Shown: in pieces, positions 28,795 to 46,308 of the stretch
Layout: every line of letters starts with the position of its first letter
Position numbering within the stretch: position 1 is the first letter of the stretch
Source of the DNA: an uncultured Gammaproteobacteria bacterium
GTDB taxonomy: Bacteria > Patescibacteriota > Microgenomatia > UBA8517 > JACQJR01
DNA: 64,000 nt
Assembly (NCBI GenBank): GCA_964442455.1
Contig: CAYTZB010000001.1
Coordinates: 85,910 to 149,909, forward strand
Reading direction: 5' to 3'
Program-made: the position numbers and the translations under genes
The notes under the pieces: model-generated
Database searches by the model: none
What the model saw: the letters and a program-made list of their open reading frames with translations, nothing else
What the model was told of the DNA's origin: nothing

Positions 28795-31700
28795 ATCTCA
28801 AAGAACGATAGAAATAACACCGGGCAAATCTCCAACTAATGAAGTTATAGAAAGGGTAGGTAGAGAAATAACTCACTGTGATTTGCTCCATATGTGGAAT
28901 TTTGAGGTGGATGGGAGGAACCAGCAAGAGATAGATGAAGAACTTCAGGAAGCAATAAGGCATGTTGTAACGTATACACATACCATCAATGGTGCAGAGT
29001 ATGGAGGCTACCTACCTGATGAGACACTTGAAGAAAAATTGAATTTAGCGTGGTTTCAGAAAGTGGGACTGTTAAAACCAGTGGCGTTGCAGTTTAAGGG
29101 TGAAATTGCAGATGTTGTTCGGTTTGCGTGGCCTGAAGGATTTCACCAGGAAGAGCAAGAGAGAGTCCAGGCGTTTCGTTTGAGACCAGATACAATTGAA
29201 TTTTGGCAGGAATTAAAGAAAGATCTAGAAGGAATACAAACGCCCAAAAATATGGCACTTTCAACTTTTATGATGTATTACGATCCTCGAACAAAAAGGC
29301 AATCTTATCTTGAGGGAGGTAAATATATATACCTTTACGGCCTCTTTTTTCAGGATACATTAGCTGAAGAGTCGATTCATAACCCGGTTGATTATTTAAG
29401 CTCCCGATTCAATCCACCTCGTGATAATCAAGAATTTATTGATCTAGTCAAGGAAACACGTGAGCTTGCGGAGATAAAGCTTCGTAAACCCTATGGAAGT
29501 GTTATGGACATACAAGAAAGGCTTGCAGATCCTAGTTTTTTGGAAGAGTTTGTAATAGATTTGAACGAATATACTGAAGATTTCACTTTTGCTAACTTTA
29601 TGCAAGGCTGGTTGAATTATACAACTCCCAATGGTGACATCATACGGTGGAGTGCTAGAGGAAAGTACAGAGAGCTTCTCAATGATCTTTTAGCACGAAG
29701 GTGGATTGCACAACTGGGCGAAAATGCCGGTTCTGAATCTACACCAAAAAAACCCGCTGAAATATTTTATGAAGCTGCTCCGCAGAACCTCAAACTTTTA
29801 CTTTTGGCGAAATTTCCGAAGGATTTTTCCCATCTTACACTCGAAAGTTTGGAACAGAGTCAGGTAGTGTCAGATGAAGTTCGTGCAATACTTGAAGAGA
29901 CCAGCTTACTGGGAGTTGATAGTCAAGATCGTATTTTAGAGACGCTTGGGAATTATATCTTAGCTAAACATAAAAATAATGAAAGTCTTAATTATCTTGA
30001 TGGTCAACGAATTAAGACGATTTTACTTCAAGTTTCTCAACAAATTCTTCCCGCAGTTATTAGAAGAGCTGCTTCTTCCAAAACGGAGAGCGTTTTAACC
30101 GATAGTCGCATAGTTCCTACAGTTTTGAGCGAAGCAAACTCAGAGAATCAAGAAGTTGCTGACTCTGCCCAAGAGTTGTTGGAATCTCTTAGGGAGGCGT
30201 ACTACTTTCCCCTGCTTAAAAGTTTACTTTACAAACCAACAGCGCTTTTTTGGACTTCATATTTAACTGAGCACCCCGAAGAGGTAACAGTTCCTCCTGC
30301 CATGTTAATTAATTTCCTTGAAAAGCATTTAAAAGGAAGAGTAGAAGAAATTGCTCTTCAAGGCGATCAAAAAGAGGTTCTTGGTTATTTAAGTCAAGAG
30401 GTACTTCCTAATGTCTATCGCCACTTTGCTGAAGTTGCTACCTTTGCCCAGACAATTGCTCACTTTAGAACAAAGGATATTGAAGGGAAACCTCAACATT
30501 TACTTTTTCACCAAGTAGAAGGAATTAAGAAATTGATCGAAGATAAAGGCGGAATTGTATCAGATGAACCTGGTACTGGCAAAACACTTATACTTGCGCT
30601 TTCTGCACTTAATCTGATGGACAGAAGCGGAATTGTTGGACGAGGTACACCTGGGCGCGCTTTAGTAGTTGGGACAAAATCAGTAATAGATAATTGGGAA
30701 AGTGAACTGGATGCACATATACGAACAGACTATATAGATGTTGTAAATGTCAACTTCACCAATCAGAAAGATAGACAAGTGAGTAGAGATGAGTTACAAG
30801 CCCGGTTACGTGAGCTAGAAAGATTACTTCGAAACCCTAGACATCAGAGACAAATGGTATTGGTCAATTACGATTTGTTCAGACACCCTACATTTAAAAA
30901 GATTTTGGGATCTTATCCGTTTGATTCTGTGATAGTTGATGAGGCACATAACGTTAAATCTCGGTTTCTTGAATCAATTAATACCTATGAGAAAAGCGAT
31001 GATTTACGGAGTAGCACGAGTGTAGCTAAAAGAACAAGGGGTCTTTATAGCTACATCAGAACTAGTCCTGACCTTTCTGTATTTTTTGCCACGAGTACAC
31101 CTTATGTTAAAGAGCTTGTCGAACCTCTTATTATGGCGCATTTAGTTAACGAACAACTTGTACCTAGAGAAAGGGTACAACAACTTATGGAAGATACTGT
31201 TGGAACTCACCAAGTATTAAGACAAGTGATGATTCGCAGAAAGAAAGAGGAGATAGCTGACTTACCACCTAAAGAAACGGTAGTAGTTCCGATTGATCTT
31301 ACTTTGCTTTCCGAGGAGGAGAAGCAAGAGTTTAAAGCAATAGCACAAGAGATTATGGAGAACGAAAATTTTGCTGCACGGTTTTATTCAATGCTTTCGC
31401 TTGAAGGTTTGGCCAAATATCCCTGGTTGACAGAAAAGGTTAAAGAGCTTATTTCAGATGGTCGCAAGGTAATTATCTTCACCCCCTTTGTGGTTGGAGA
31501 AAATCGATATACTGCGCCGATTAGTACCGCACGAATAGCAGCAAAATTAATGGGTGCAGGAATTCCAATCAACTCAGTTGCTGTTTTGGACGGAAGTTTA
31601 GATGAAGGAGAACGAATTAGTGTGCAAGGACGTTTTCGTAACCAGCGAGATCCGAAAGTTTTAGTTGGTAATTACATTACCGCAGGAGAGTCAATAACAC

Positions 31701-34700
31701 TCAACTCACCCACCAATAGAGCTACGGAAGTAATTATCTTTGTGGGGCCAAATACAATTACTCGCTATATTCAAGGGGTTGACCGAAGCCACAGAATTGG
31801 GCAAACAGAAAAAGTTACCATTCACATACCATATGTTACTGGAGATTTGCTTGGACGAGGTGAGACCTACGACGAAGCAGTAATTAAACGACTTATGGAT
31901 GAACTGGTAGTTTTTGGAGCTGTCGTCGACGGGCGATTCTTTATGGAGCCAAAAGATATCTATCAATCAATTATTCAAACAGATAGAGCAAAACCGAGAG
32001 GTAGTGTTGAATTTACACGAGAGCATCGACAACGATCAAGAGAGAGGCGACGTGGTCCTTATACACCTCGGTTGCCCGGAGAACCAACTCCAAGAGTAAT
32101 GATAAGTGAAGATGAGGTTATCGATTTTGGATGGATGCAAAATATTCGTGAGGTTGTTACTCGTGAGAGCGAGTCTGAACAGGATATAGTGAGAATGTAT
32201 CTAGAGCAGATAGGACAATACCCACTATTTAATCCGGATAATCCAAATCACGAAAGATTGGCGTTCGATTATTTTAAAAGTGACAGAACCCTTGATGAAT
32301 TAAAGATAGATTCAGAATTTCTTTCAATGATTAATCCGCGAGATAGAGAAGATTTTGGACGTGTTCTGACTGATAGCCAAAGTATTCAAGATTTAATTAT
32401 TAACTGTAATCTCCGCTTGGTAGTTTCAGTAGCTCGTCAACGTCAAGGTCGCGGCTTACCCCTTTTGGATTTAATACAAGAAGGAACATTTGGCTTAATG
32501 CATGCGGTTGAACTCTTCGAACCCGAGCGAGGAAATAAATTTTCAACATACGCAACGTGGTGGATACGCCAAAGTATAAACAGAGCGATCATGAATTCTT
32601 CGCAGACAATCCGATTGCCAGTTCATATGTATGAAAGAATTGGTTTGGCTCGGAGATTTGCAAGAGAATTTGAAGCTACAAATGGTCGCACCCCAAAAGT
32701 GAGTGAGCTGCGCGAGTTAGTTTTAACTCAAACAAAGTTTTCCGAAAGTGAAGTTGACTCTGTAATCGAAACCATTGCTTCAGGAGTTATGCAAATGGGC
32801 ACTTTGGACTTTGAGATTGGGGAAGATGGAGAAGATACATTATATGATGTCGTTGCCGACAAGAGAATGGATGTTGAAGCAACTGTTTTGGAAGAAACAG
32901 AGGATGATGAGCTGAATACTGAGGTAAAGAGGGCTCTGAAAGAGAATTTGGATGAAAGAGAAAGAAGAATAATAGAGTTAAGATTCGGTTTGGGTGAAAC
33001 AAGAGAGAGAACTCTAGAAGAAGTCGGACAAGAATTTGGATTGACACGAGAACGTGTTAGACAGATTCAGGAAAGAAGTTTAGGCAAACTTAGTAGAGAC
33101 AAACAATTACGCGCTCGGTGGGAAGGCGATGCTCCGAGTTTTGTGTATCATACGAGTGCAGAGCAAGCAGCCATCAGGTTAGGATTATTCAATAAGAAGC
33201 AAAGTTATGTCGAGAAAGTTGTCGCAGAGTTACCTCCCCATCTTCAGAGTGTGCTTAATCAACGTATTCTCAAAGCAGCATCTTTGATAAATGGAGATGC
33301 ACAAAATGGGACTTCCGAAGTGGATCAAAGTTATCAATTTACACTTGCACGACTTGCAGTATGGGAGAAGTTAGGGACACTTTATCCAGACGATTTAACT
33401 GACTCACGGCAACGTCGTGAAATATATGGAAAAGATTTTGGGCCATATTTTGACCTATCGCTTATGAAACGGTTGTATGAGCGAAGGGATGGTAGAGTTA
33501 GACTGTTAGATAATCGAGTGTTATCGCACTTTTTTGGATTTGGCGATGGTCAGAAACCCCTCTTAAGTGTAGAGAAAGTTACTCAAGAGCTAGGAATTCC
33601 ACAGGATACAGTTACCGCGGGTCTTCATAAGGGGTTGCAGGTACTTGAAGCTCCACCAGAGAAGAAAACCAGAGCAGAAGAGCTCAGCAGAGAACACAGC
33701 ATTGTTGCACAGGCGTTTCGCAATCAAGAGATTTGGGATCAAATTCCTGATAGAGAAAAAAGCATATTAACACTCTATTTCATACGTGGTGGCGATCAAC
33801 AAGTATTAAAAGAGAATTTTTCGAGAATTTTCGGGATTTCTCTGCCTGAAGTAGATGCACGAATAAACGCTGCAGTAGAGTTAACTGAACGACTTTTAAC
33901 AGAAATTCAGGCTAAACCAGAACGTCAACGAAGGGTAACAAGAGGAGAACTTAGAGATATGGTTGAAGGATTATTGAAAGAGTATCCTTGGTTGAGCAAT
34001 AGCGAAGTAACAGAGCATCTTTCAACAAAACTAAAACAAGATTTAAGCAAAGCTCGTGTTGACCAAGCGAGGAAGAGCTTGGTTGCCCTTGAGAGAGTAG
34101 AGTCACGGCGTGGAAAATTAGATATACTTGACTCAAGAGTCGAAGCATTACTACTCCAAGGATTAAAACCCCAGCAAATTGCTGAGAGTTTGGTTCAATC
34201 AGAAAAAAGAGTTATTGCTTCTATAAGAAGATTGATTAGCACAGGAAATCTTGATACCCAACTTATTCAGTGGAGAAACGATGGCCTTTCAAAGGAAGAA
34301 ATTGCTGAAAGAATAGGAAGTTCAGCTGTTACCATAGGGAGAAGGCTCCGGGTACATGTTGAATCTGGTGCTCTACCTTTCCATCCTCGTGATCCTCGGA
34401 CAGTTGATGATTCTGGAGTTACCGAGCACGTCAGAAACCTAGACGGTATGGTTGAGTCATTGATTCTTCAAGATCCAAAAATAAAAACTAAAGAAATTAT
34501 TGCTGCATTGGAACCTACAGTAGGAAAATACATGGCGGAATTAACAATCCGGAGAGCAAAGAAGCGGCTGGTAGCTGCAGGGAGAATACCTTCTCATTTA
34601 TTTAATCTTACCCATGAGGAAGCAGTAGCTTTAGATCAACAAGTAGAAGAATTGGTAAAAAACGGAAATCTCTCTTATAAAGAGATAGCTGCTGCATTGA

Positions 34701-34951
34701 ATCAGCCAATCAGCAGAATTAGAAATTCTAAAGAAAGACTTGTCAAGACTCGCAGAATTGAGCCTAATCCAAAGTATGTTGACAAAGGAGCTAGTGCAGC
34801 TCTAGAGGAGTACTTATCAACACATCATGGTGATGAAATTAATTTATCAGAGTTTGCGCGCTCTATTGGTATTAGCCGCGAACGCGCAAGCCAACTCTAC
34901 AAGCGGTTAACCAATTCGCAGCTTAAGGAATTAATGACGCGGAGGAAGTAA
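28778..34951 (+). CDS. giant multidomain protein (2057 aa): N-terminal unknown region, SNF2-family ATPase/helicase, complete sigma-70 (regions 1.2, 2, 3, 4) and a C-terminal array of HTH repeats
   Basis: SNF2 motifs: LLFHQVEGIKKL, DEPGTGKTL, VIVDEAHNVK, and helicase-C QGVDRSHRIGQ. Sigma motifs: VRMYLEQIGQ, DLIQEGTFGLMHAVELFEPERGNKFSTYATWWIRQSINRAI, RLPVHMYERI, and LRFGLGETRERTLEEVGQEFGLTRERVRQIQERSLGKL. A strong RBS (GGAAAGGAG) sits 6 nt upstream, with a 17-nt overlap onto the preceding gene. Confidence 0.85.
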   Translation: MQREFESQRTIEITPGKSPTNEVIERVGREITHCDLLHMWNFEVDGRNQQEIDEELQEAIRHVVTYTHTINGAEYGGYLPDETLEEKLNLAWFQKVGLLKPVALQFKGEIADVVRFAWPEGFHQEEQERVQAFRLRPDTIEFWQELKKDLEGIQTPKNMALSTFMMYYDPRTKRQSYLEGGKYIYLYGLFFQDTLAEESIHNPVDYLSSRFNPPRDNQEFIDLVKETRELAEIKLRKPYGSVMDIQERLADPSFLEEFVIDLNEYTEDFTFANFMQGWLNYTTPNGDIIRWSARGKYRELLNDLLARRWIAQLGENAGSESTPKKPAEIFYEAAPQNLKLLLLAKFPKDFSHLTLESLEQSQVVSDEVRAILEETSLLGVDSQDRILETLGNYILAKHKNNESLNYLDGQRIKTILLQVSQQILPAVIRRAASSKTESVLTDSRIVPTVLSEANSENQEVADSAQELLESLREAYYFPLLKSLLYKPTALFWTSYLTEHPEEVTVPPAMLINFLEKHLKGRVEEIALQGDQKEVLGYLSQEVLPNVYRHFAEVATFAQTIAHFRTKDIEGKPQHLLFHQVEGIKKLIEDKGGIVSDEPGTGKTLILALSALNLMDRSGIVGRGTPGRALVVGTKSVIDNWESELDAHIRTDYIDVVNVNFTNQKDRQVSRDELQARLRELERLLRNPRHQRQMVLVNYDLFRHPTFKKILGSYPFDSVIVDEAHNVKSRFLESINTYEKSDDLRSSTSVAKRTRGLYSYIRTSPDLSVFFATSTPYVKELVEPLIMAHLVNEQLVPRERVQQLMEDTVGTHQVLRQVMIRRKKEEIADLPPKETVVVPIDLTLLSEEEKQEFKAIAQEIMENENFAARFYSMLSLEGLAKYPWLTEKVKELISDGRKVIIFTPFVVGENRYTAPISTARIAAKLMGAGIPINSVAVLDGSLDEGERISVQGRFRNQRDPKVLVGNYITAGESITLNSPTNRATEVIIFVGPNTITRYIQGVDRSHRIGQTEKVTIHIPYVTGDLLGRGETYDEAVIKRLMDELVVFGAVVDGRFFMEPKDIYQSIIQTDRAKPRGSVEFTREHRQRSRERRRGPYTPRLPGEPTPRVMISEDEVIDFGWMQNIREVVTRESESEQDIVRMYLEQIGQYPLFNPDNPNHERLAFDYFKSDRTLDELKIDSEFLSMINPRDREDFGRVLTDSQSIQDLIINCNLRLVVSVARQRQGRGLPLLDLIQEGTFGLMHAVELFEPERGNKFSTYATWWIRQSINRAIMNSSQTIRLPVHMYERIGLARRFAREFEATNGRTPKVSELRELVLTQTKFSESEVDSVIETIASGVMQMGTLDFEIGEDGEDTLYDVVADKRMDVEATVLEETEDDELNTEVKRALKENLDERERRIIELRFGLGETRERTLEEVGQEFGLTRERVRQIQERSLGKLSRDKQLRARWEGDAPSFVYHTSAEQAAIRLGLFNKKQSYVEKVVAELPPHLQSVLNQRILKAASLINGDAQNGTSEVDQSYQFTLARLAVWEKLGTLYPDDLTDSRQRREIYGKDFGPYFDLSLMKRLYERRDGRVRLLDNRVLSHFFGFGDGQKPLLSVEKVTQELGIPQDTVTAGLHKGLQVLEAPPEKKTRAEELSREHSIVAQAFRNQEIWDQIPDREKSILTLYFIRGGDQQVLKENFSRIFGISLPEVDARINAAVELTERLLTEIQAKPERQRRVTRGELRDMVEGLLKEYPWLSNSEVTEHLSTKLKQDLSKARVDQARKSLVALERVESRRGKLDILDSRVEALLLQGLKPQQIAESLVQSEKRVIASIRRLISTGNLDTQLIQWRNDGLSKEEIAERIGSSAVTIGRRLRVHVESGALPFHPRDPRTVDDSGVTEHVRNLDGMVESLILQDPKIKTKEIIAALEPTVGKYMAELTIRRAKKRLVAAGRIPSHLFNLTHEEAVALDQQVEELVKNGNLSYKEIAAALNQPISRIRNSKERLVKTRRIEPNPKYVDKGASAALEEYLSTHHGDEINLSEFARSIGISRERASQLYKRLTNSQLKELMTRRK

Positions 34952-34995
34952 GAAAGTTGCTTTTACGCTTCTTGTAAGCTATACTACACACCGAT

Positions 34996-36351
34996 ATGGC
35001 AATAGAGAAACTTTTTTCAAGAATGAGGCAAGATGCCCTCGATAGCGCTTCTGGCCTTTCTGAAGAGCAAGCACATTTATTGCGTGAGGGAAAGGTAGAA
35101 GATGCTGAACAGAGAATGAACCAGGTGAAAATCGAGATAGCTAAAGCAAAAAAGGTTAATAGGATCGTTGCTGATATGTTGGATATTTTACGTGCAGCAG
35201 GTTTTGAACAACCTCCTGCTGAGTATCTTGAGCAAGTAGTAGCAAGAGAAGTATCAACTCCCGAACCCGTTTATGTAAAAGGGCAAAAATCGGGTCTTTT
35301 TAGTTTCCTCGCTCGATTATTTCCTTCAAAACAAGAACAAATATTTATTCCTGGACGACCCATTTCTCCTCTTAATCTTGTCGAAGAAGTTATGGGATCA
35401 AGACCAGTTGTAGAGGAGACAAGCGAAGAAGTGAAAGAGATTGGAGATATAGATAGAGAAGGAGAGGAAGTGGTAGCGGCAGTACCAACTCCTCCAATTG
35501 AAGCCAAAAGAGTGAGAGGTGATTTTGTGGAGCGCGAAGAAAAATTAGTATACGCAGCTCTTGCTGTTAATCCTAATAGAGATGGATTTCAATTTGAATC
35601 ATGGAGGAGTGTGTGGCGCCAGGCGTTTTCTGATGCCTTCGAGAATATTACCGATGAAAGAGAGCGTGACGATAAAGAAAAAAATTCGCAGATAGCCTCA
35701 TATTCTGCCCGCAGTGCTATTATTGTCAAACTTCAAAGAGTCAAAACTAATGCTCAGGACATTCCCCCTAAAGTAGCGAGTTTTCTTGAATGGGTTAAAA
35801 CTCAACCAGAATACGTTAATCTAAGTGTTGATGATATCTCCCTAATTATACAAAGACAAATAACCTTTGATGAAATTCGTCAAAAGGCAAGCCAAGCAGT
35901 AAATATCTTGCAAATAGAATCGCAACCCACAGAAGAGCAAGCGGTTTCTGGGGAACAAACTGAGTCAGTTCCACAACTGCCCTCGATTCAAGCATCAGAA
36001 AGCAGGGCAACAGAGCCACAAACGCTACAGTTAACAGGGCCAGAGCTTCACTTGCTTGCGCAGAAGTTACTTCAGGCAGCGCCAGCAGTATTAGAAAGAA
36101 CAGGAATAAGAATTCACACTGCAGATAGAGAAGAGATAGGTGGAATTATGGGGCGGCTCGCAAGTTCACCAGAAACTCTTCGTGCAAGCGAAACTTCTCT
36201 TGAAAGTCTCACACAGAAACTTGCTGCATATCTAAAAGACAAAGAAAAAGTATTTATGGAAAATGTCAGCAATGAGGATGCTCAGTATTTGATTACGTTT
36301 GTTGCGGGTATCAGTTCTGAAGACCTATTAAAAGAGTTTTTAAGTAGTTGA
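34996..36351 (+). CDS. hypothetical acidic protein (451 aa), co-located with the SNF2-sigma gene
   Basis: Long ORF rich in Glu and Gln. No recognised domain. Confidence 0.6.
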   Translation: MAIEKLFSRMRQDALDSASGLSEEQAHLLREGKVEDAEQRMNQVKIEIAKAKKVNRIVADMLDILRAAGFEQPPAEYLEQVVAREVSTPEPVYVKGQKSGLFSFLARLFPSKQEQIFIPGRPISPLNLVEEVMGSRPVVEETSEEVKEIGDIDREGEEVVAAVPTPPIEAKRVRGDFVEREEKLVYAALAVNPNRDGFQFESWRSVWRQAFSDAFENITDERERDDKEKNSQIASYSARSAIIVKLQRVKTNAQDIPPKVASFLEWVKTQPEYVNLSVDDISLIIQRQITFDEIRQKASQAVNILQIESQPTEEQAVSGEQTESVPQLPSIQASESRATEPQTLQLTGPELHLLAQKLLQAAPAVLERTGIRIHTADREEIGGIMGRLASSPETLRASETSLESLTQKLAAYLKDKEKVFMENVSNEDAQYLITFVAGISSEDLLKEFLSS

Positions 36352-36407
36352 CGCTTCTTTCCTCTCACCCAGAGATTCCCAGATGGCGATACGGCTCACT
36401 CGACCCC

Positions 36408-36436
36408 TTGACAACTCCTGAAAATTTATCCACAAT
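36408..36436 (+). promoter_or_regulatory. putative ftsZ promoter CCCCTTGACA, 17-nt spacer, CACAAT
   Basis: TTGACA at 36408-36413. The 17-nt spacer contains TGAAAATTTATC. The -10-like CACAAT is at 36431-36436. Confidence 0.4.
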
Positions 36437-36592
36437 AGGCCACAAGTGAAATTAACCTAATTAACCTAATTGCTCTAATTGATCTAAATTTTGAAGATTT
36501 GTAGTTTAAAAATTGGGATTTATTTAGAAATTAGAATAATTAGAAATAAGCAGAGCTTGTTTCTCGCAAGCTCGAAATTAGAAATTTTTAAA
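36437..36592. repeat. AT-rich intergenic repeat element B, copy 2 (upstream of ftsZ)
   Basis: Modules ATTAACCTAATTAACCTAATT, ATTGGGATTT and TTAGAAATTAGAATAATTAGAAAT are shared with 13795-13929. Confidence 0.5.
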
Positions 36593-37720
36593 ATGGCTCT
36601 TGTTAAACCAGATACCACGCGGTTGGCAAAAATTCGAGTAATTGGGGTTGGTGGCGGTGGGGGGAACGCAATTAACTCCATGATCTCCCAAGATAAGATT
36701 TCCGGAGTTGAGTTCATTGCCGTTAATACAGATGCACAAGTCCTTCTCTCAAACCTCGCGTCCACAAAAGTTCAAGTTGGTGAAAAATTGACGCGCGGGT
36801 TGGGTGTTGGGGGAAATCATGAGCTTGGGAAACAAGCAGCGGAGGAATCAAGAGAAAAAATTAAAGAACTGCTTCTTGACTCTGATATGGTATTTATTAC
36901 TGCAGGTATGGGTGGAGGGACTGGAACTGGGGCTGCACCGATTATTGCCGAGGTCGCGCGTGAGGTGGGGGCGTTGACGATTGCTATTGTTACCAAACCT
37001 TTTGCCTTTGAAGGTGCACGGCGCGCAGTAGTAGGAGAAGAGGGAATTGAAGCGCTTAAAGGAAAGGTTGATACGCTCATTATCATTCCCAATCAGCGGT
37101 TGATGGATGTCATTGACCGGAAGGTGACGCTACTTGATGCGTTCCGCCTGGCCGACTCGGTGCTCTCGCAAGGTGTACAAGGAATTTCTGAAATTATCAC
37201 CCAACCGGGACTTATTAACGTTGACTTTGCGGATGTAAAAGCAATTATGACCCAAGCAGGCTCAGCGCTTCTTGGCATTGGTACGGGAGTTGGTGAAGCG
37301 CGGGCACAAATGGCAGCACGGGCAGCAATTTCCTCTCCTCTTCTTGACTTATCAATCGAGGGTGCAAAGGGAGTGTTGTTTAATATCTCGGGTGGCCCGG
37401 ACTTGACTATGGCGGAGGTTGATGAGGCAGCGCGAATTATCGCCGAGCATTCCGATGCAGACGCAAACATTATTTTTGGTGCATCAATTGACCAACGGTT
37501 GTCCGATCAAGTACGTATTACAGTTATTGCGACCGGTTTTGATGAGGCGCGGGCACGACTTGCGCAAATAACCCAAACCGCAGTCAAACCTCAACCAACC
37601 CTTGAGTCGACAGAAGAGACTCGTGGGGAAAACGAGGAGGAAGAAAAGGCAGAAGAACCCAAGGATGATGAGTTTGGAGAACGCTTCGAAATACCAGCGT
37701 TTCTAAGACAGGGCCGCTAG
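36593..37720 (+). CDS. ftsZ: cell division protein FtsZ
   Basis: GGGGGNAIN tubulin signature, T7 loop, and the C-terminal conserved peptide DDEFGERFEIPAFLRQGR. Start ATG 36593 (MALVKPDTTRLAKIRVIGVGGGG). The longer caller ORF from 36491 is an upstream extension. Confidence 0.95.
   Translation: MALVKPDTTRLAKIRVIGVGGGGGNAINSMISQDKISGVEFIAVNTDAQVLLSNLASTKVQVGEKLTRGLGVGGNHELGKQAAEESREKIKELLLDSDMVFITAGMGGGTGTGAAPIIAEVAREVGALTIAIVTKPFAFEGARRAVVGEEGIEALKGKVDTLIIIPNQRLMDVIDRKVTLLDAFRLADSVLSQGVQGISEIITQPGLINVDFADVKAIMTQAGSALLGIGTGVGEARAQMAARAAISSPLLDLSIEGAKGVLFNISGGPDLTMAEVDEAARIIAEHSDADANIIFGASIDQRLSDQVRITVIATGFDEARARLAQITQTAVKPQPTLESTEETRGENEEEEKAEEPKDDEFGERFEIPAFLRQGR
37669..37707 (+). repeat. 39-bp direct repeat, left copy (ftsZ 3' coding end)
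   Basis: Identical to 40512-40550: TGAGTTTGGAGAACGCTTCGAAATACCAGCGTTTCTAAG. Confidence 0.9.
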
Positions 37721-37766
37721 CTTCTAGGATAAAACCTATAATATTTCTTCTACTCTTTAGTTGATA

Positions 37767-37775
37767 TGGTATACT
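37767..37775 (+). promoter_or_regulatory. extended -10 promoter TGgTATACT for the helicase gene (leaderless configuration)
   Basis: TGGTATACT lies 6 nt before ATG 37782. Confidence 0.35.
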
Positions 37776-37781
37776 ATCGGC

Positions 37782-40514
37782 ATGATTGCAACAACCGAAA
37801 GAGCTATACCAATAGGATTGACTGGCGATATCTCAAAGGATGGAATTCTTTCTCCAGGAACACAAATAGAGCTTGATCGTCTCCAAACTAATGCGGCTGA
37901 TGCTTGCATGGAATATCTAGATAGAATGGCACCAGATGCACCATTTCCTCTAGTTTTTATGGCAACTGGCGTCGGTAAGGGAAAAATTATTCACGAACTG
38001 ATTAAAAGGCAAAAAGCTCGAAAACAAGACTCGAAGATTTTGTTAGTTACAGGTACAAAAATTGTTTTAGTTGATCAGACTGATCAAGCTTTAACTGCTT
38101 ATCAGCAAGAACAAAATGATTTTGATATGGATGAGGATCTTGAACTGGACCAGATGGATTTTGAAAAAGAAGCGTTTGGAGAATACACATTTGATAAGTA
38201 TGGTAATCCGGATGTGGATGTTCAACTGGCAACAATTCAAAGAATTCAAAGGCAGCATAAAGAGGGGAAACTTAATGCGAATGATTTCGATCTACTAATA
38301 GTAGATGAAGTACATAATGTAGGAACCCAGAATAGGTTTAATGCAATTGATAACTTTCAAAGGGTTGTTGGTTTTACTGCTACTCCATATCGCTACACTG
38401 GCCCAATGAAAACACCACAAAGTTATGGATTTGAAATAATTACTTCGCTGTCCCTTCCCGAAGCACAAGAAAGGAAAATTCTTCCGCCTCTTTATGCACT
38501 GCAGATTAATACATCAGAATTACTAAAAGACGAACAAATACCTACCACGAGAACTGGAAAGATCGATTATTCGAAACTCGAGAAAGTTCTCAAGGCACAT
38601 CCGGAATTAAGGGAATTCATTGCGAATAGAGTTGCACCAATTATCAATTTTGAAGGGAGAAGTTATAAAACTGTTGTAACTGTTAACTTTGTGTGGGAAG
38701 CCCTGGAACTTGCCTGGTTATTTAGGGATAAAGGAATTAAGGTTGGTTTAGCAGTTAATCAATATGCCGCAAAGAATATTGATACCAAAGAAATACCAGC
38801 ATTGGACACGATTAGGAGATATAAACTGCCGGAAGGCGATCCAGAAAGCCTCCAGGTTTTAATTTCTCCTTATGTTATTTCGGAAGGTTTTGATGCTCCG
38901 GCAACAGAGATTTTAGTTTGGGCGTCTCCAACTGATTCATATCTGCGATACACGCAATATACTGGACGGCTGGCCAGAAGACATTTTGGTAAAGCTTATG
39001 GACTAGTTGTTGATTGTTTATACCAAACAAGCCAGTATGGTTGGACCTACAACTTTGCAATGTGGATGAAGGGATATGTACAAGAGTTAGAACCTGGACT
39101 TTTATATCTTGGCCCGATGTCAGAAATCAAAGATGTTGAAGTACTTAGACGCATACACGAGATTTCGGATAATATCCATATTCGTGAATTACAAAGGGAA
39201 GGAATACTACCTATTCAAGAAAACGACTTGCCGCTTTCACAAAATTGGATTCGACCTCTTTTCCAGGGAGATTGGCTTAGATTAACTTCTTTAATCGATG
39301 AGATTAAAGAAGAGTATAGAATCACTGGTGAGGAGGTATTTAATCAACTATTCACAACCAGGCTTAGTGGTAATCAACTTGTGCTCGTATGTACAAATAG
39401 AGATATTTTTATTCAACGGCTAATAGACAAAGGTGCTAAACCAAAGGTTGAAAAACCACGAGAGGGAGAGATTCCTTTGACTCAGATTAATCTACCCAAA
39501 CTCTTTGTTGGTAATTTTGAAGATACTTTGAGACCTATGCTTAATTCAATAATGGCGCGTATTAAAAATGAAGATCCAGAGGAATACCAGCGACTCTTTG
39601 CCAAACGAATGCAGGGTAGGGAAATCTATGTTTGCACAAATAAGGATAGACTTATTCAACTTATGGTTGAAGCTGGCGCAAAACTCAGGCCAGGGACTAA
39701 GGTAGCAAAAGAGAAAATGCAAACTAGCGATTTTGCTCTTACAGCAGATAATCTCGGAGAAACTTTTATTACTGGAAGAACAAAGAAGATAAGAGAAGTA
39801 ATAAGGAAAATAAAAGAAAGTTTGCCAGAAGGGGACTCTTTATTTACTTTTAGAGAATACAAGTATGCCGATGTTGAGGTAGTAACTGATTTCGATAGAT
39901 TTGTGCAATTAATGCTACAAACTGGAGTCAAACTCAGACCAAAAAATTTTATTCCAATTCAACCAAATGATATACAATTAAGTAGGGATTTATTAAAAAC
40001 ATTTTTAGGGCAATGGCGTGAAATTTCTACAACAGCGCAGCGAGCTAAAGAAAGACTTGAAAGACAATTCCCCGATGACTGTGATACTCTTTTTGTAGTT
40101 AGGACAACGAGAGTCCAAAATAAACCTCTTTGGATTGATGTATGTACAGACAGGTCTAAATTTATAAAAGCAATGGTAGAGGAAGGAGCTCGATTGAGAG
40201 ATCAGGCAGATATTAACCTTCTACCTATTCAAGAAAATGATATTGTTTTGAGCTTTGAATCTTTCTATTCGATTTCTACTACAAACTGGAGTAAATTAAA
40301 AGTTGTAATTAGACGAATTAAAGATAGGATAAAAGAGGAAATGCCAGAGGAATTCGAAAAGTTATTTGTAAAAAGGAAAAACCGTCGGGGGAAAAGTGAG
40401 GTCTGTACAGATAGAGGTTTATTTATTAAGTGGCTTGAAGAAGAGGGTGTTAAGCTAAGGCAAATTCCGCTAGTTGTGCGACATAGAAGTAGTAACTCTA
40501 ATCGTAACTCTTGA
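37782..40514 (+). CDS. superfamily-2 helicase (DEAH-type, restriction-enzyme-res/UvsW-like core) with five C-terminal tandem repeats of about 100 aa
   Basis: Motif I ATGVGKGK, motif II LLIVDEVHNV, motif III GFTATPY, and helicase-C EGFDAP and QYTGRLARR. The repeats each end with xTxR..FI..(L/M)...G(A/V)KLR. The start is ATG 37782 or the upstream TTG 37761. Confidence 0.8.
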   Translation: MIATTERAIPIGLTGDISKDGILSPGTQIELDRLQTNAADACMEYLDRMAPDAPFPLVFMATGVGKGKIIHELIKRQKARKQDSKILLVTGTKIVLVDQTDQALTAYQQEQNDFDMDEDLELDQMDFEKEAFGEYTFDKYGNPDVDVQLATIQRIQRQHKEGKLNANDFDLLIVDEVHNVGTQNRFNAIDNFQRVVGFTATPYRYTGPMKTPQSYGFEIITSLSLPEAQERKILPPLYALQINTSELLKDEQIPTTRTGKIDYSKLEKVLKAHPELREFIANRVAPIINFEGRSYKTVVTVNFVWEALELAWLFRDKGIKVGLAVNQYAAKNIDTKEIPALDTIRRYKLPEGDPESLQVLISPYVISEGFDAPATEILVWASPTDSYLRYTQYTGRLARRHFGKAYGLVVDCLYQTSQYGWTYNFAMWMKGYVQELEPGLLYLGPMSEIKDVEVLRRIHEISDNIHIRELQREGILPIQENDLPLSQNWIRPLFQGDWLRLTSLIDEIKEEYRITGEEVFNQLFTTRLSGNQLVLVCTNRDIFIQRLIDKGAKPKVEKPREGEIPLTQINLPKLFVGNFEDTLRPMLNSIMARIKNEDPEEYQRLFAKRMQGREIYVCTNKDRLIQLMVEAGAKLRPGTKVAKEKMQTSDFALTADNLGETFITGRTKKIREVIRKIKESLPEGDSLFTFREYKYADVEVVTDFDRFVQLMLQTGVKLRPKNFIPIQPNDIQLSRDLLKTFLGQWREISTTAQRAKERLERQFPDDCDTLFVVRTTRVQNKPLWIDVCTDRSKFIKAMVEEGARLRDQADINLLPIQENDIVLSFESFYSISTTNWSKLKVVIRRIKDRIKEEMPEEFEKLFVKRKNRRGKSEVCTDRGLFIKWLEEEGVKLRQIPLVVRHRSSNSNRNS

Positions 40515-40550
40515 GTTTGGAGAACGCTTCGAAATACCAGCGTTTCTAAG
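40512..40550 (+). repeat. 39-bp direct repeat, right copy (displaced remnant of the ftsZ 3' end encoding ..EFGERFEIPAFLRQGR*)
   Basis: Identical core. It is followed by AGGCAAGGAAGATGA, whereas ftsZ itself has AGACAGGGCCGCTAG. Both encode RQGR-stop. Confidence 0.9.
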
Positions 40551-40571
40551 GCAAGGAAGATGAGGGTAACA

Positions 40572-41147
40572 CTACCTTCTCGGGAGTATGATTGAAGTTG
40601 GCGGCTCAAGCGAAAGGTTTCCCATCTTCAAAAACATACACGCAAGTGCAAACCCATAATCATCTTTTAATGACTCGGGTACTGTTAATGCTTCTCTGAA
40701 TCTGCGTGGCCATAATACCTTTATTACTCTCTCCCCGTTTTCTCGCTTGGAACTTTCAAGACCGGCTACGACTTCTACATGAGGCAAAAGCGACAAGATA
40801 AGTTGTCGAGCCAACGGATCGCGAGTGTTAGGGAATGGTTGTCTCGGAAGTGATTCAATAATCCCATTAACCAGATTAAGTTCTTGTTTCACTTCTTCTT
40901 GTGTGGTTGCGGTGAAATCAAATTCCATAAAACGGATAGTCCCTGAAATTTCATCAAAATAGACGATATAGACACTCTGTAGATGTCTTGTCTGGTCAGG
41001 TCCTATTTGTGCTCGGGTAGGTCGGACAATTCTATGACGGAATTCTTCTGACATGTAGAGTTGTTCAAGAAGATCTGCAACACGTGCCTGATCGCTTGAT
41101 TTAAGCTGTTCTATTATTGGGGCAATACCAGTACGTTCCTGCCGCAT
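40572..41147 (-). CDS. hypothetical protein (191 aa)
   Basis: ORF with no recognised domain. Confidence 0.5.
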   Translation of the reverse strand: MRQERTGIAPIIEQLKSSDQARVADLLEQLYMSEEFRHRIVRPTRAQIGPDQTRHLQSVYIVYFDEISGTIRFMEFDFTATTQEEVKQELNLVNGIIESLPRQPFPNTRDPLARQLILSLLPHVEVVAGLESSKRENGERVIKVLWPRRFREALTVPESLKDDYGFALACMFLKMGNLSLEPPTSIILPRR

Positions 41148-41229
41148 ATAGGGTGTCAGTATAGCACTTGCCCGATACCTCCTTCAATTTCTGTCCGAGT
41201 TTTAGTATAATACCTCGAGAAGAACAAGT

Positions 41230-41883
41230 ATGAGACCAGAACAGGGAAGGGGTATTACTCCTTCACAAATTATTACACAAGCAGAGATGACGACGTTGCT
41301 ATCCGAGAGAAGTGGACATCCCTTTTCTCTGTTGCGAACGCGTGCACTCGCACTTAATTATGTCGGGAGGGAAGCGGTTAATTCGGTATTAGATAGGTTG
41401 GGCACAAGAGGGAATATAATTGCAGCAATTTCACCAGATACTCGTTTCTATGCACGGCGATTACAAGGAACACAACAAGAGCAGATATTTGACGAAGGAG
41501 TTGGGTGTATTATTCTTGGAACAACCATTCTTTCTCTTGAAGATGCTATTTTAGACTGGGAGTGGAAGGACAAACTGCTTGAGGATAATTTCAACCGCGT
41601 GGTTAGTGGTACTCCTCTGCCAAAACTGCCTTTAGAAGCGATTGTCCGAAAAACTCCGGCAAATAAAAGAGATATATCTCCCAAACAAGTCTTCGATCGG
41701 ATATTACGGGAGGCGGCGCGCGATACAAGTTTTCAAGGATTTTTTACGTCCGAAGGCATGGAAGTTAACCCTCCGGCGGTGGTTAGTACGTTCCTTCGTG
41801 CGAATGAACGGTCAGTCAGAGCAGCATTACTTCTCTATCGTGAAGTCGTTGCTGCGGGTTTAAAGCAGCATCTTCAATTTTGA
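41230..41883 (+). CDS. hypothetical protein (217 aa)
   Basis: ORF with a TATAAT at 41208-41213 upstream. Confidence 0.5.
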   Translation: MRPEQGRGITPSQIITQAEMTTLLSERSGHPFSLLRTRALALNYVGREAVNSVLDRLGTRGNIIAAISPDTRFYARRLQGTQQEQIFDEGVGCIILGTTILSLEDAILDWEWKDKLLEDNFNRVVSGTPLPKLPLEAIVRKTPANKRDISPKQVFDRILREAARDTSFQGFFTSEGMEVNPPAVVSTFLRANERSVRAALLLYREVVAAGLKQHLQF

Positions 41884-41907
41884 TTCCTTTTTATGTACAA
41901 TTGAGGC

Positions 41908-44877
41908 ATGGCAAAGCGAACAGAAGGACCTTTCTTTAAGCCGGTATCCTCTCACCCTGACTTTCCAAAGATGGAGAAGGAGCTGCTTTCCCATTGGTAT
42001 AGAGCGGGAATTGTCAAGAAATATCTCACAAAAAATAATAAAAGCAGAAAACTGTTTCGTTTCTTAGACGGGCCAATTACCGCCAACAATCCCATGGGAG
42101 TTCATCATGCGTGGGGACGAACGTACAAAGACCTATGGCAACGCTATAAAAATATGCAAGGGTATAGGCAGCGGTTTCAAAACGGATTTGACGCGCAAGG
42201 ATTGTGGGTTGAGGTGAATGTGGAGCGGGAGTTGAAACTTAAAAGTAAACACGATATTGAGAATTTGGTCCCAGGGGACAAATTCCGCTCTATTGCCCGC
42301 TTTGTTGAGGCGTGTAAAGAAAGAGTGAACCACTTTGTCAAAGTCCAAACCTTGCAATCAAAACGCCTGGGATATTTTATGGATTGGGATAACTCATACA
42401 TTACATACTCCCCCGAGAACAACTATATGATTTGGAACTTCTTGAAAAGGTGTCATGAGCGGGGTTTAGTTTATGAGGGGTTGGATGCGGTGCCGTGGTG
42501 TCCGAGATGTGCGACTGCCATATCAAACCACGAGATTTTGACCGAAGGGTATCGGGAACTTACCCATACCGCAGTCACGCTCAAATATCCTATTGCAGGC
42601 AGAGTTAGGGAGTATTTGCTGGTGTGGACTACCACACCATGGACCCTTCCCGCAAACGTGGCAATTGCGGTAAATCCGAAGATTATTTATAGCAGAGTGA
42701 AAGTTGGGCGAGACCTGCCTGCGCAGGCAGGTATCTACTATATTGCACGTGATAGGATAGTGCCGGTTCTTGGAAGAGATGTAGAAGTGCTCGAGGAATT
42801 AACTGGCGACCGACTGCTCAATATTTCTTATAAAGGTCCTTTTGATAACTTACCTGCAGTAGATAGTGCTCGGCGCGAAAACCCACGCACATTTCATAAA
42901 ACAATTGATGGGGGAGAGCTGGTAACAAGTGAGGAGGGGACAGGACTCGTACACATTGCGCCAGGTGCCGGTCATGAGGATTTTGTGCTCGGCCGCAAAT
43001 TCGAACTTCCCACAATTATGGTTATCGATGAGCAGGCGCATTTTATAGACGGATTTGCCTTTCTCACCGGTCGCCGAGCAGCGGACGCCCGTCCGATAAT
43101 TAACTATTTAAAGAAAGAAAAACCCGAAGGTTCAAAAATGGGGTGGTTGGTGAAGCAGGAGGAGTATTCACATCGCTACCCTGTATGCTGGAGATGCGAG
43201 ACGGAACTTGTATTTCGGGCAGTACCTGAATGGTATATTGCAATGGATCCAATTCGCGAAAAAATGGCAGAAATGGCGAAGAAGATTACTTGGATTCCTG
43301 AATTTGCTAAAGAAAGGGAGCTTGACTGGATTCGCAATATGGGTGATTGGCTGATTTCAAAGAAGCGATATTGGGGTCTTGCGTTGCCTATTTGGAGATG
43401 CAGCGCGTGTGGGTGGTTTACGGTAATAGCAGGGAAAGAGGAATTAAAAGAGAGAGCAGTTGAAGGTTGGGAAAAGTTTTCAGGACATTCCCCTCACCGA
43501 CCCTGGATTGATGAGGTAAAAGTCACTTGTGAGCGGTGTAGTGAGCGGGCTTCCCGCATTCCTGATGTCGGCAATCCATGGCTTGACGCTGGTATTGTGC
43601 CATTTTCAACCCTAATAGATCCGAGGTCTAAGAAAGTTTCATACATGACGGACAAGAAATATTGGCAAGAGTGGTTTCCGGCGGACTTTATTACTGAAAG
43701 TTTTCCGGGCCAGTTTAAAGGTTGGTTTTATAGTCTTTTGGCAATGAGCGCGGTACTGGAAAACGTTCAACCTTTTAAAACGGTGCTTGGGTTTGCGACC
43801 TTGTTTGGTGAGGATGGACGACCAATGCACAAAAGTTGGGGAAATGCCGTCGAATTCGGGGAGGGGGCAGACAAAATTGGAGTTGATGTGATGCGCTGGA
43901 TGTACGCAAAAGCCTCCCCGGCCCAAAACCTATTGTTCGGCTACACACTGGCTGATGAGACTCGCAGGAATTTCCACCTCCCACTGTGGAATGTATACAA
44001 CTTTTTTGTAACATATGCTAACTTCGACAAATGGTCTCCGAGGGGGGCACGAGTACCAAAGGTACCACGAGTATCAAGCATTTTAGATAAATGGATTCTG
44101 GCACGGCTCAAAGAGATGGCGTACAATGTTGGGCAGTCTCTTGATAAATATGATGCTCAAACAGCATCAAGTGAAATAGAAAGATTTGTTGATGATTTAT
44201 CGACGTGGTATATCAGGCGTTCTCGTTCACGAGTAGGGCCAAGCAATACCGATACAACGGATAAAGAAGAGTTTTATCCTACGACTTATTTTGTATTGGT
44301 GACGCTTTCCCAACTTCTTGCACCCTTTTTGCCGTATTTGTCCGAGTTTATCTTTACTTACCTGACCCATGAAGAATCGGTACATTTGACACAATGGCCC
44401 GACACTCCCGCACCTGATACGCGGGAGATTGAACTTATTGCTACAATGCACGAGCTGCGAGAAGCGGCCCAAGTAGGACACGCTATGAGAAAAACTGCGG
44501 GCATCAAAGTGCGCCAACCATTAAATCGTGCCACAGTCGGCGCACCGAGTAAATCTCCCACACGTCCCTTTCTAACTCTTCTGGGAGAAGAGTTGAATGT
44601 TAAAGAAGTTGTTTGGAAAAAGAAACGGGTACAAAAAGCGGTTGTAACTCTCAATACACGTATTACTCCAGTTCTGGTTGAGGAGGGAGAGGCACGAGAA
44701 TTGGTGCGCAGAATTCAAGAGGAGCGGCGACGGCTTGGTTTGGGTCTAACTGAGCGCGTGCGCGTCACTGTACCTCACATACCGACGGACAAAAAGCTTT
44801 TTAATTGGATAAAAGCGAAAACGCTGGCGCAAGATTTAAGTCAGGGAGACGAATTTATTGTTACAAAAATGGAATGA
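41908..44877 (+). CDS. ileS: class Ia aminoacyl-tRNA synthetase with editing domain, most likely isoleucine--tRNA ligase
   Basis: HIGH-region DGPITANNPMGVHHAWG with KD...GY spacing as in IleRS. WCPRCATAISNHE, DWLISKKRYWG and a KMSKS variant PMHKSWGN. Cys zinc-binding clusters. 989 aa. LeuRS or ValRS cannot be excluded by eye. Confidence 0.65.
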   Translation: MAKRTEGPFFKPVSSHPDFPKMEKELLSHWYRAGIVKKYLTKNNKSRKLFRFLDGPITANNPMGVHHAWGRTYKDLWQRYKNMQGYRQRFQNGFDAQGLWVEVNVERELKLKSKHDIENLVPGDKFRSIARFVEACKERVNHFVKVQTLQSKRLGYFMDWDNSYITYSPENNYMIWNFLKRCHERGLVYEGLDAVPWCPRCATAISNHEILTEGYRELTHTAVTLKYPIAGRVREYLLVWTTTPWTLPANVAIAVNPKIIYSRVKVGRDLPAQAGIYYIARDRIVPVLGRDVEVLEELTGDRLLNISYKGPFDNLPAVDSARRENPRTFHKTIDGGELVTSEEGTGLVHIAPGAGHEDFVLGRKFELPTIMVIDEQAHFIDGFAFLTGRRAADARPIINYLKKEKPEGSKMGWLVKQEEYSHRYPVCWRCETELVFRAVPEWYIAMDPIREKMAEMAKKITWIPEFAKERELDWIRNMGDWLISKKRYWGLALPIWRCSACGWFTVIAGKEELKERAVEGWEKFSGHSPHRPWIDEVKVTCERCSERASRIPDVGNPWLDAGIVPFSTLIDPRSKKVSYMTDKKYWQEWFPADFITESFPGQFKGWFYSLLAMSAVLENVQPFKTVLGFATLFGEDGRPMHKSWGNAVEFGEGADKIGVDVMRWMYAKASPAQNLLFGYTLADETRRNFHLPLWNVYNFFVTYANFDKWSPRGARVPKVPRVSSILDKWILARLKEMAYNVGQSLDKYDAQTASSEIERFVDDLSTWYIRRSRSRVGPSNTDTTDKEEFYPTTYFVLVTLSQLLAPFLPYLSEFIFTYLTHEESVHLTQWPDTPAPDTREIELIATMHELREAAQVGHAMRKTAGIKVRQPLNRATVGAPSKSPTRPFLTLLGEELNVKEVVWKKKRVQKAVVTLNTRITPVLVEEGEARELVRRIQEERRRLGLGLTERVRVTVPHIPTDKKLFNWIKAKTLAQDLSQGDEFIVTKME

Positions 44878-45901
44878 CATGCGTATTGATGGTGCATTAT
44901 TGGGTGCGGTAATACTCCTTCTTGTAGTGGGCAATACTATTCTTCTCTCTGTTGAGCCGCGGCTTTTTCCGCTCCAATTTTTGTATATCGGTGCGGCCGT
45001 AGTTGTATTTTTCCTTGTTGCTAGAGTGGACGCTGCCGTATTGCGTGCCTTTGCACCCCTTGGGTATTGGCTAGTGATAATTTTTTTGGCAGTTACGTTA
45101 GTTATTGGAGTAATAAGTCATGGAGCAGTGAGATGGTTACCAATAGGACCTGTTACGGTGCAACCGTCTGAATTTGCAAAACCCGCTATTGCTTTAATGA
45201 CTGCGTGGCTCCTATCAGGAAATATTAAAAATAGCTTTTTAGCTTCTTTGTTGGTCAGCTTTTTAGCTTCTTTGTTGGTATTTATTCAACCAGATTTCGG
45301 AACCGCTGTGATTCTGGGTGTATCATGGTTGGGAGCTGTCTTAGCAAGCGGAGTATCGTTTAAAACTGTTTTTAGGTTTTTAATTTTTTTCATTCTTTTA
45401 ATTCCTTTAGGTTGGTTTATTCTAGCACCGTACCAGCGAGAAAGAATAACTTCATTTTTAAACCCGACGAGCGACCCCGCAGGTGCTGCGTACCAAGGAC
45501 GACAAGCAATGATTGCTGCCGGTTCGGGAGGACTCCTTGGCCGAGGGTTGGGACAGGGAAGTCAAACACAGCTTGCATTTTTACCAGCGCGCTCAACTGA
45601 CTTTGCATTCGCAAGCGTGGGAGAGGAGCTTGGATTCGTGGGGATGGCGCTCGTTTTGGTAGGATTTTTTGTGGTTTTTTTGAGGATTGTAGGGGTGTTA
45701 AGGGAAGCGCGCGAGCCGTTTGTGAAAGCTGCACTTGGTGGAATTTTTCTTTTTCTTTTCGCCCAAACAACGGTGAATATTGCCATGAATCTTGGTATGC
45801 TTCCCATCGCCGGTGTGCCGCTACCCCTTATTTCTGCCGGCGGCTCGGCGCTTGTCTCAACGATGTTAAGCTTAGGGATTGTCGTGGCTCTTCGGAAGTA
45901 G
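44858..45901 (+). CDS. rodA: SEDS-family protein RodA/FtsW paralogue
   Basis: Polytopic FtsW/RodA family. C-terminal LPIAGVPLPLISAGGSALVSTMLSLGIVV. Contains a 24-nt perfect tandem duplication. Confidence 0.8.
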   Translation: MLQKWNDMRIDGALLGAVILLLVVGNTILLSVEPRLFPLQFLYIGAAVVVFFLVARVDAAVLRAFAPLGYWLVIIFLAVTLVIGVISHGAVRWLPIGPVTVQPSEFAKPAIALMTAWLLSGNIKNSFLASLLVSFLASLLVFIQPDFGTAVILGVSWLGAVLASGVSFKTVFRFLIFFILLIPLGWFILAPYQRERITSFLNPTSDPAGAAYQGRQAMIAAGSGGLLGRGLGQGSQTQLAFLPARSTDFAFASVGEELGFVGMALVLVGFFVVFLRIVGVLREAREPFVKAALGGIFLFLFAQTTVNIAMNLGMLPIAGVPLPLISAGGSALVSTMLSLGIVVALRK

Positions 45902-45908
45902 TATAATT
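45879..45908 (+). promoter_or_regulatory. putative promoter TTGTCG, 18-nt spacer, TATAAT immediately upstream of rplU (leaderless configuration)
   Basis: TATAAT at 45903-45908, 6 nt before ATG 45915. There is no Shine-Dalgarno. Confidence 0.35.
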
Positions 45909-45914
45909 GCCCCT

Positions 45915-46235: not shown

Positions 46236-46255
46236 AACTATATCAAACCACCCTC

Positions 46256-46284: not shown

Positions 46285-46308
46285 AAATTTTAGGGAAATA
46301 GGTTAATT

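Follow-up and report, generated by a model that had tools for sequence, protein, structure and literature searches.

The window examined here, the whole 64,000-nucleotide (nt) stretch of contig CAYTZB010000001.1 that was analysed, belongs, by the source names of its protein matches, to a Microgenomates-group bacterium of the Candidate Phyla Radiation (CPR); its ftsZ gene is followed by a superfamily 2 (SF2) helicase gene and then by a second, displaced ftsZ end. It is firmly established that two different functional ftsZ alleles gave the two ends, the live end being an import joined directly to the helicase and the displaced one being the end typical of the clade, and equally that the event was a 3′-end displacement with reconstitution of ftsZ. 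The best-supported description is that of a recombination scar, which placed a chromosomal helicase 3′ of ftsZ while rebuilding the C-terminal peptide.

The two ends of ftsZ

The ftsZ gene (36593..37720, + strand) is intact and encodes a protein of 375 amino acids (aa) with the Pfam domains Tubulin and FtsZ_C; the FtsZ product in the NCBI record is 409 aa, compared to the 375-aa open reading frame (ORF) found here, and for this reason the 375-aa sequence gave no exact match. The 39-mer TGAGTTTGGAGAACGCTTCGAAATACCAGCGTTTCTAAG is present in exactly two copies in the window with 0 mismatches, while 0 matches are expected by chance for a 39-nt repeat (100 shuffles); the perfect repeat of the ftsZ 3′ end around a 2.8-kb SF2 helicase insert, as reported in an earlier note on this DNA, is thereby confirmed. 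Copy 1 (37669..37707, +) lies within ftsZ and encodes the conserved C-terminal peptide EFGERFEIPAFL(R). Copy 2 (40512..40550, +) had been placed right after the helicase stop codon, which requires correction; the repeat opens with the stop codon itself, its first three bases being the TGA at 40512-40514.

Copy 1 runs on into AGACAGGGCCGCTAG, read as the codons AGA CAG GGC CGC TAG, and copy 2 into AGGCAAGGAAGATGA, read as AGG CAA GGA AGA TGA; both copies with their continuations translate to EFGERFEIPAFLRQGR-stop, with the tail RQGR. The 15-nt ends that follow the repeat are unlike at 7 of their 15 bases and every change is silent, in line with the synonymous divergence described in the same note; the chance that seven random substitutions would leave the peptide unchanged is P = 7.5e-6, and both ends are therefore considered to have evolved as working FtsZ C-termini. 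The DNA 3′ of the two stop codons is unrelated; after the live end, ...CTA AGA CAG GGC CGC TAG, the window continues CTTCTAGGATAAAACC. A likeness of the end of the first tail to a motif upstream of the helicase (CAATTCCGC) or to helicase codons 40454-40473 was judged to be chance.

The ftsZ 3′ end reads CAA GGN AGR in all relatives examined (loci L010, L013, L002, and L129). The downstream copy fits this pattern, whereas the live end, CAG GGC CGC TAG, is unlike that of any relative; because the downstream copy is clade-typical and the live end atypical, it is the native tail that has been displaced. The atypical, imported 3′ tract of the live gene (37693..37720, +; gene positions 1101-1128) starts at an Ile codon at gene position 1101, inside the 39-nt repeat. 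The last 28 nt of live ftsZ hold 12 window-specific silent differences (relative to L010 and L013), whereas the 35 nt before the tract hold 0, against a background of 6.3%; for the final 15 nt of the live gene, P is about 2e-4.

The displaced ftsZ tail is a 51-nt relic (40513..40563, +) of 16 codons and a stop, which on its sequence is probably untranslated; the sole candidate for its expression is a 29-codon ORF that starts with TTG and has no ribosome-binding site, and the sequence context for a +1 frameshift from the helicase into the relic is unfavourable. The relic is a mosaic, with 24 nt common with the relatives, 15 nt of atypical alleles (ATA CCA GCG TTT CTA), and a clade-typical last 15 nt (AGG CAA GGA AGA TGA).

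The extreme C-terminus of FtsZ differs within the clade, being RQGR, RQGRFGS, RQGRN, or RQR (L129:10114-10152; proteins P0095, P0096, P0103, P0104, and P0097); this variety may reflect earlier end-replacement events.

The helicase between the repeats

The SF2 (ResIII/DEAD) helicase (37782..40514, +) is a 910 aa protein with matches to ResIII (E = 4e-19) and DEAD. Its motor (residues ~1-440) is RadD/Hef/HsdR-like and akin to the translocase modules of restriction enzymes; the C-terminal half (39207-40466, residues ~476-895) is made of five tandem repeats of ~85 aa. Each unit is predicted to fold as a helix, a long helix, a β-hairpin, and a helix (predicted local distance difference test score, pLDDT, of 87), and the predicted unit has no significant match to any PDB structure. 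The number of C-terminal repeats appears to be variable among homologs, and family members are about 650-1150 aa in length. The family comprises ~90 proteins, essentially all from CPR/Patescibacteria genomes, and about 35 of its genomic contexts are ordinary chromosomal ones, such as the vicinity of tpiA, LytR, and uvrD in two lineages.

The suggestion that the helicase is a defence-type gene is not supported. No nuclease or recombinase domain was found in the protein; PADLOC defence models give only partial matches to the motor domain (PbeA 56 bits, type IV restriction endonuclease 36 bits) and no partner genes, and the NCBIfam matches reach 33-49 bits against cutoffs of 550-720, so that the helicase falls far below every defence or NCBIfam cutoff. 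A viral or plasmid-like origin was likewise rejected: the family is not in IMG/VR, where the matches are generic helicases at 22-26% identity, and scans with the junctions and with the arm sequence of a second genome, L014 (described below), gave nothing or chance matches. Flanking repeats are not a trait of the family, as none were found at six other loci checked (L002-L006 and L094), and nowhere outside the window was the helicase seen with such repeats or with a tail of ftsZ. Low GC content as a sign of a foreign helicase was also rejected, since the syntenic homologs are equally AT-rich relative to their ftsZ.

The closest homologs, from L094 (61% aa identity) and L002 (53%), are the immediate upstream neighbours of ftsZ, in the slot that separates ftsA from the ftsZ promoter; for this reason the adjacency of helicase and ftsZ tail in the window can be inherited synteny and need not represent the attachment site of an element (attP). 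The ftsZ promoter (TTGACA-17-CACAAT; 36408..36436, +) is conserved in all relatives, and in L094 the helicase stop is the TGA inside the TTGACA −35 box of that promoter (CCT TGA CAT). At the matching position the window reads TCT TGA GTT and runs into the ftsZ tail; both helicases are 910 aa and align to the last residue. Because the stop TGA is aligned, the junction of helicase and relic is the product expected of a ~1.2-kb deletion between two TGA microhomologies in a helicase-promoter-ftsZ arrangement. In the spacer between live ftsZ and the helicase (37721..37781, +), the last ~37 nt are homologous to the native helicase-upstream region of L094 and L002, and the first 24 nt have no counterpart in any sampled genome.

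Nucleotide identity is lower for the helicase than for ftsZ in both comparisons made (window-L094, 69.3% vs 75.7%; L094-L002, 75.8% vs 83.1%). The helicase is patchy among close lineages, being present in L094 and missing from L129 (FtsZ ~98% identical, with the FtsZ of L094 partial), and present in the window and not at the ftsZ locus of L010 or L013. The slot between ftsA and ftsZ is hypervariable: L010 and L013 have nothing in it, and it is filled by 9.6 kb in the window, by genes of 105 and 133 aa in L129, by a 106-aa gene and the helicase in L094, and by a toxin-antitoxin pair and the helicase in L002. The pair beside the L002 helicase is of the HepT/MNT type (L002:5047-5899), and the cargo of the slot differs in every lineage examined.

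A second case in Candidatus Gottesmanbacteria

Extra ftsZ tails were found at only two of the 85 loci with an FtsZ ORF that reaches its stop, namely the window and L014 (Candidatus Gottesmanbacteria, JAZDOQ010000024.1), whose FtsZ is 66% identical to that of the window. L014 surfaced in a scan of FtsZ contigs, among the matches listed, which are relatives at 66% identity or less. It holds three copies of its own ftsZ end, IPAFLRQRN-stop; one is live and two are displaced by 1.36 and 3.5 kb downstream (last 30 nt at 11479-11511 and 13614-13646, in the region L014:10150-13650). The pairs of tails differ by 8, 6, and 4 nt, all of them silent (P = 2.5e-6, 5e-5, and 1.7e-3), and the homology begins at the Ile of IPAFLRQ, as does the atypical tract in the window.

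Each displaced tail in L014 is the 3′ end of a ~113-nt unit that includes a conserved arm of ~83 nt; the units are identical at 91 of 113 positions, and a third, truncated arm lies between them, near 12320-12370. The gene groups between the units are def (deformylase) with a 173-aa ORF, a frameshifted AlkD-like gene, and genes of 61, 85, and 221 aa with no assigned function; no integrase, serine recombinase, or transposase is encoded in these cassettes. The extra DNA after ftsZ is missing from the relatives of L014. Its arm was not found in the window or in 130 other loci, and viral contigs (IMG/VR) give no match beyond chance. No attC-like or other single-strand structure was detected in the window repeat or in the L014 units (fold z-scores of −1 to +1). 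Since a second, unrelated genome shows the scar twice, the addition of genes beside ftsZ by this route is recurrent.

The neighbourhood in close relatives

The closest relatives of the window at this locus are L010 and L013, with FtsZ proteins that are 98% and 97% identical, ftsZ genes that are 91-92% identical at the nucleotide level, and about 90% nucleotide identity over the flanking genes. Their gene order is murD-ftsW-murG-(ftsQ-like)-ftsA-ftsZ-A-B-ileS-ftsW, without the helicase. The window differs from it in three ways: the helicase and relic are placed after ftsZ; about 9.6 kb (26811-36401) with three large ORFs separates ftsA from the promoter of ftsZ; and genes A and B have exchanged places. 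The absence of the helicase from the locus in L010 and L013 agrees with an insertion in the window, although ftsZ in these relatives is followed by gene A and not by gene B. The exact empty site that had been proposed as a check, ftsZ followed directly by the flank at 40551, was accordingly not found in them, nor was an empty-site contig among the matches to the exact gene B protein.

Gene B (40572..41147, −) encodes a 191-aa protein of unknown function and is a native neighbour, which follows gene A in the relatives. Its 73-75% identity to those relatives was considered as a sign of a larger foreign block and rejected, because B evolves fast (87.6% between L010 and L013 themselves). Gene A (41230-41883, +; 217 aa, function unknown) is directly 3′ of ftsZ in the relatives and cleanly missing there in the window, where it has been relocated to the spacer between B and ileS; the relocated gene is bracketed by a 9-bp direct repeat, CTTCAATTT (41182-41190 and 41872-41880), so that short-homology rearrangement is considered to operate in this region. 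Relocated gene A has also gained an upstream segment that contains TATAAT and a 7-residue C-terminal extension.

The 9.6-kb insert (26811-36401) encodes a 590-aa ORF, a 2057-aa fusion, and a 451-aa ORF, with a low GC content at third codon positions (GC3) of 0.25-0.30. The 2057-aa protein is an SNF2 helicase (ZorD-like motor) fused to an MzaA-like part (E = 2e-47 to PADLOC MzaA), in which sigma-70-like regions were recognised by eye. No duplicated ftsA end was found at the borders of this insert, nor were displaced ends of ftsA or of the ~105-aa gene at the upstream insertions. Between the ftsZ promoter and start codon lies an AT-rich insert of ~150 nt (36439-36591), where the relatives have ~14 nt; it is made of AATTAACCTAATT-like repeats, which are also present at 13808-13846.

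Mechanism of the displacement

Homologous recombination, rather than a self-encoded integrase, is our preferred account of how the 3′-end displacement scar was made; it is held tentatively, at a confidence somewhat short of even. The sequences show that incoming DNA with the helicase and its own ftsZ end recombined within the roughly 30-54 nt that code for the FtsZ C-terminal peptide; the live gene now finishes with imported codons, and its former end became the 51-nt relic 2.8 kb downstream. The essential ftsZ was kept intact, since the new end specifies an unchanged peptide. The incoming DNA probably stems from the region around ftsZ in a related Microgenomates genome, one with the helicase directly upstream of ftsZ and the helicase stop inside the −35 box. 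A circularised helicase-promoter-ftsZ fragment may have entered through a single Campbell-type crossover near the ftsZ 3′ end with a short conversion tract beside it, which is the proposed reason for the mosaic relic. A deletion from the TGA of the −35 box to the TGA in ...GATGAGTTT, either preceding or following integration, would have taken out the redundant promoter and the body of ftsZ, after which the helicase would abut the ftsZ tail alone. The 39-nt repeats could still recombine, an exchange that would remove the helicase and restore a normal ftsZ.

Several observations favour homologous recombination. No tyrosine or serine recombinase, integrase, resolvase, or transposase was detected in the 64-kb window (Pfam domains, the helicase, its neighbours, and ~50 ORFs), so that the recombinase search suggested earlier came back empty for the window; the observation that no integrase lies between the repeats stands. 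RecO is encoded in the window, the repeats have no non-coding arm, the cargo is chromosomal, and a short-repeat relocation has occurred nearby. The locus has the features of homology-driven displacement, with a conserved 5′ anchor, a new 3′ end with cargo, and an old 3′ fragment kept downstream, and the layout expected of a donor, with the cargo beside the anchor gene, is seen in L094 and L002. The mosaic relic, together with the start of the atypical tract inside the repeat, is better accounted for by homologous recombination and adjacent gene conversion than by a clean exchange between att sites, but it is a single instance in the clade and the homology in L014 starts at the same codon.

Other points weigh against this account. 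Several steps are needed (circle formation, a crossover with conversion, and a deletion), and 39 nt of perfect identity is short for RecA-type exchange. The atypical end AGACAGGGCCGCTAG and the 24 nt that follow it are in no sampled genome, and the donor was not found; the ftsZ end of the L129 lineage differs as well, although its FtsZ is ~98% identical to the partial FtsZ of L094. The displaced tails of L014 are each preceded by the conserved ~83-nt arm and their homology sets in at the Ile codon where the atypical tract of the window begins; the arms suggest elements with defined ends and a dedicated recombinase.

The interpretation most directly opposed to homologous recombination is a site-specific cassette or integrative element, whose att site is the FtsZ C-terminal coding sequence and whose recombinase acts in trans or has been lost, each integration supplying a new ftsZ end and displacing the previous one. 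This is rather unlikely on present evidence; a trans-acting site-specific system is nevertheless a serious rival, because the conserved arms of L014 argue for elements with defined ends. The perfect 39-nt identity with sharp edges, the ftsZ end rebuilt with silent differences, and the shared start of homology at the Ile of IPAFLRQ in both genomes all agree with it, as do the two displaced tails of L014 with only silent differences (P = 2.5e-6 to 1.7e-3), the ~83-nt arm before each of them with a third arm truncated, and the absence of the extra L014 DNA from relatives. However, no integrase, serine recombinase, or transposase was found in the window or in the L014 cassettes; the window lacks a non-coding arm and the helicase coding sequence itself enters the repeat; the L014 arm is missing from the window and the 130 other loci; no free form is known from IMG/VR, and the sites are not attC-structured. 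Furthermore, the mosaic alleles of the relic are not expected of simple att exchange, and the relatives of the helicase are syntenic chromosomal genes. The proposal in the earlier note of an integrative element with the repeats as its attachment sites (attL and attR) thus survives in part: the repeats, the element's own ftsZ end, and the displacement of the native end hold, while the lack of a recombinase in 64 kb, the mosaic relic, and the chromosomal cargo speak against it. A more specific form, in which Microgenomates-group CPR bacteria would have a system of cassettes moved by an integrase in trans, with the FtsZ C-terminal coding sequence as its anchor, is doubtful; such a system, comparable to an integron with its attachment site inside an essential gene, would insert serially at the last ~30 nt of ftsZ, with a fresh synonymous end each time and older ends pushed downstream, and its cargo would be the helicase in the window and the deformylase, AlkD-like, and unknown genes in L014.

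An intragenomic rearrangement is improbable; here the helicase-ftsZ pair would have been duplicated in tandem without any import and its redundant parts lost, the relic being the rest of the second ftsZ. The helicase-ftsZ adjacency in L094 and L002, the TGA junction, divergence ratios of helicase and ftsZ that are compatible with vertical descent, and the low GC content intrinsic to the helicase family are consistent with such a history. Duplicates start out identical, however, and 0 changes in 39 nt beside 7 silent changes in 15 nt are impossible by mutation in place; in addition, the untranslated relic keeps the ancestral form while the live gene has the 12 atypical silent sites in 28 nt, and the sequences after the two stop codons are unrelated. 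Least probable is an artefact of assembly or topology, in which strains were joined chimerically or an uninterrupted ftsZ coexists with a free circle of 2.84 kb. The de Bruijn graph of an empty site and a circle is the same as that of the integrated copy, and the Logan unitigs L001 (window 37678-40541) and L008 (window 40521-48098) break 30 nt into the repeat, as k=31 requires, which leaves the topology undecided by them. Logan assemblies from two other runs nonetheless reproduce both junctions at 100% identity, and contig L009, from another run, passes unbranched from the helicase end through the full repeat to the clade-typical tail, gene B, and the right flank. The window's own assembly also resolves the integrated form, and the same sequence is present in at least three data sets; because three independent Logan contigs match the region at 100% identity, an assembly artefact of the kind raised in the earlier note is unlikely.

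Other features of the window

Other repeated sequences are found in the window outside the ftsZ locus. A perfect 41-nt direct repeat, CACCTTCGAGGTGTACGCAGGTATGGTACTATTACCACACT, which starts with a 13-nt palindrome, is followed by a promoter-like segment that is 76% identical; the two copies of repeat and segment (10743-10884 and 11741-11885) precede two neighbouring genes, of 272 aa and 183 aa, with no known function. A ~1-kb unit thus looks to have been duplicated or inserted with its leader. A ~70-nt intergenic element lies at 14752-14821, 25467-25536, and 58017-58086, with two copies that are 97% identical and a third at 60%; it holds the hairpin CCCGACT...AGTCGGG, and one copy is just upstream of ftsA. 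The element corresponds to no Rfam family at the gathering threshold, and the known RNA families in the window are four tRNAs only.

Comparison with known systems and significance

In E. coli, the prophage e14 occupies the 3′ coding end of icd, which it provides with a replacement, and the fragment icdC is left behind; only conservative or silent changes distinguish the two ends, and the insert is removed when they recombine (PMC13626634). The window resembles e14 (and phage 21) at icd in that a housekeeping gene received an insertion at its 3′ end and was kept functional, with the old end persisting as a pseudogene fragment beyond the insert. As a prophage of 15 kb, e14 brings a site-specific recombination system of its own and is excised on SOS induction, whereas the window has one helicase gene of 2.8 kb as its insert, no recombinase detected in 64 kb, a duplicated segment of 51-54 nt, a relic that is an allelic mosaic, and ftsZ of a CPR bacterium as its target.

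C-terminal displacement in Rhs, contact-dependent inhibition (CDI), and type VI secretion system (T6SS) proteins leaves orphan 3′ fragments and has been proposed to proceed by homology-facilitated illegitimate recombination (PMC5361080). The likeness lies in a conserved 5′ anchor, a new 3′ end with cargo that displaces the old one, serial arrays, and no need for an integrase; the two displaced tails of L014 resemble an orphan array of the Rhs/T6SS type. In those systems the new end is a different toxin and diversifies the protein, whereas in ftsZ the same peptide is restored and the novelty is the cargo gene.

Islands at the 3′ ends of tRNA and transfer-messenger RNA (tmRNA) genes share with the window the direct repeats, the 3′ end rebuilt from element DNA, and the possibility of tandem accretion; they differ in having a tyrosine integrase beside one att site, which was not found at ftsZ, and RNA genes as targets. 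The L014 arrangement is reminiscent of integron cassettes, as small, promoter-poor gene groups stand in series and each ends in a conserved unit of ~110 nt. Unlike integrons, however, it has no intI, its units are not attC-structured, and an essential gene, with its coding end, serves as the anchor in place of attI.

The last codons of ftsZ, an essential and universally conserved gene, can therefore be a landing pad if the incoming DNA rebuilds the FtsA-binding peptide. The scar arose independently in two CPR lineages, one of which shows it twice, and this recurrence with conserved arms stands out among the results. Displaced, silently diverged gene ends are a practical marker, and scans 3′ of ftsZ and other core genes would reveal, date, and order such events. 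CPR bacteria have tiny genomes with few recognised mobile elements; because so few are recognised, an integrase-free route that adds single genes beside core genes would help to explain the turnover of accessory genes in these organisms.

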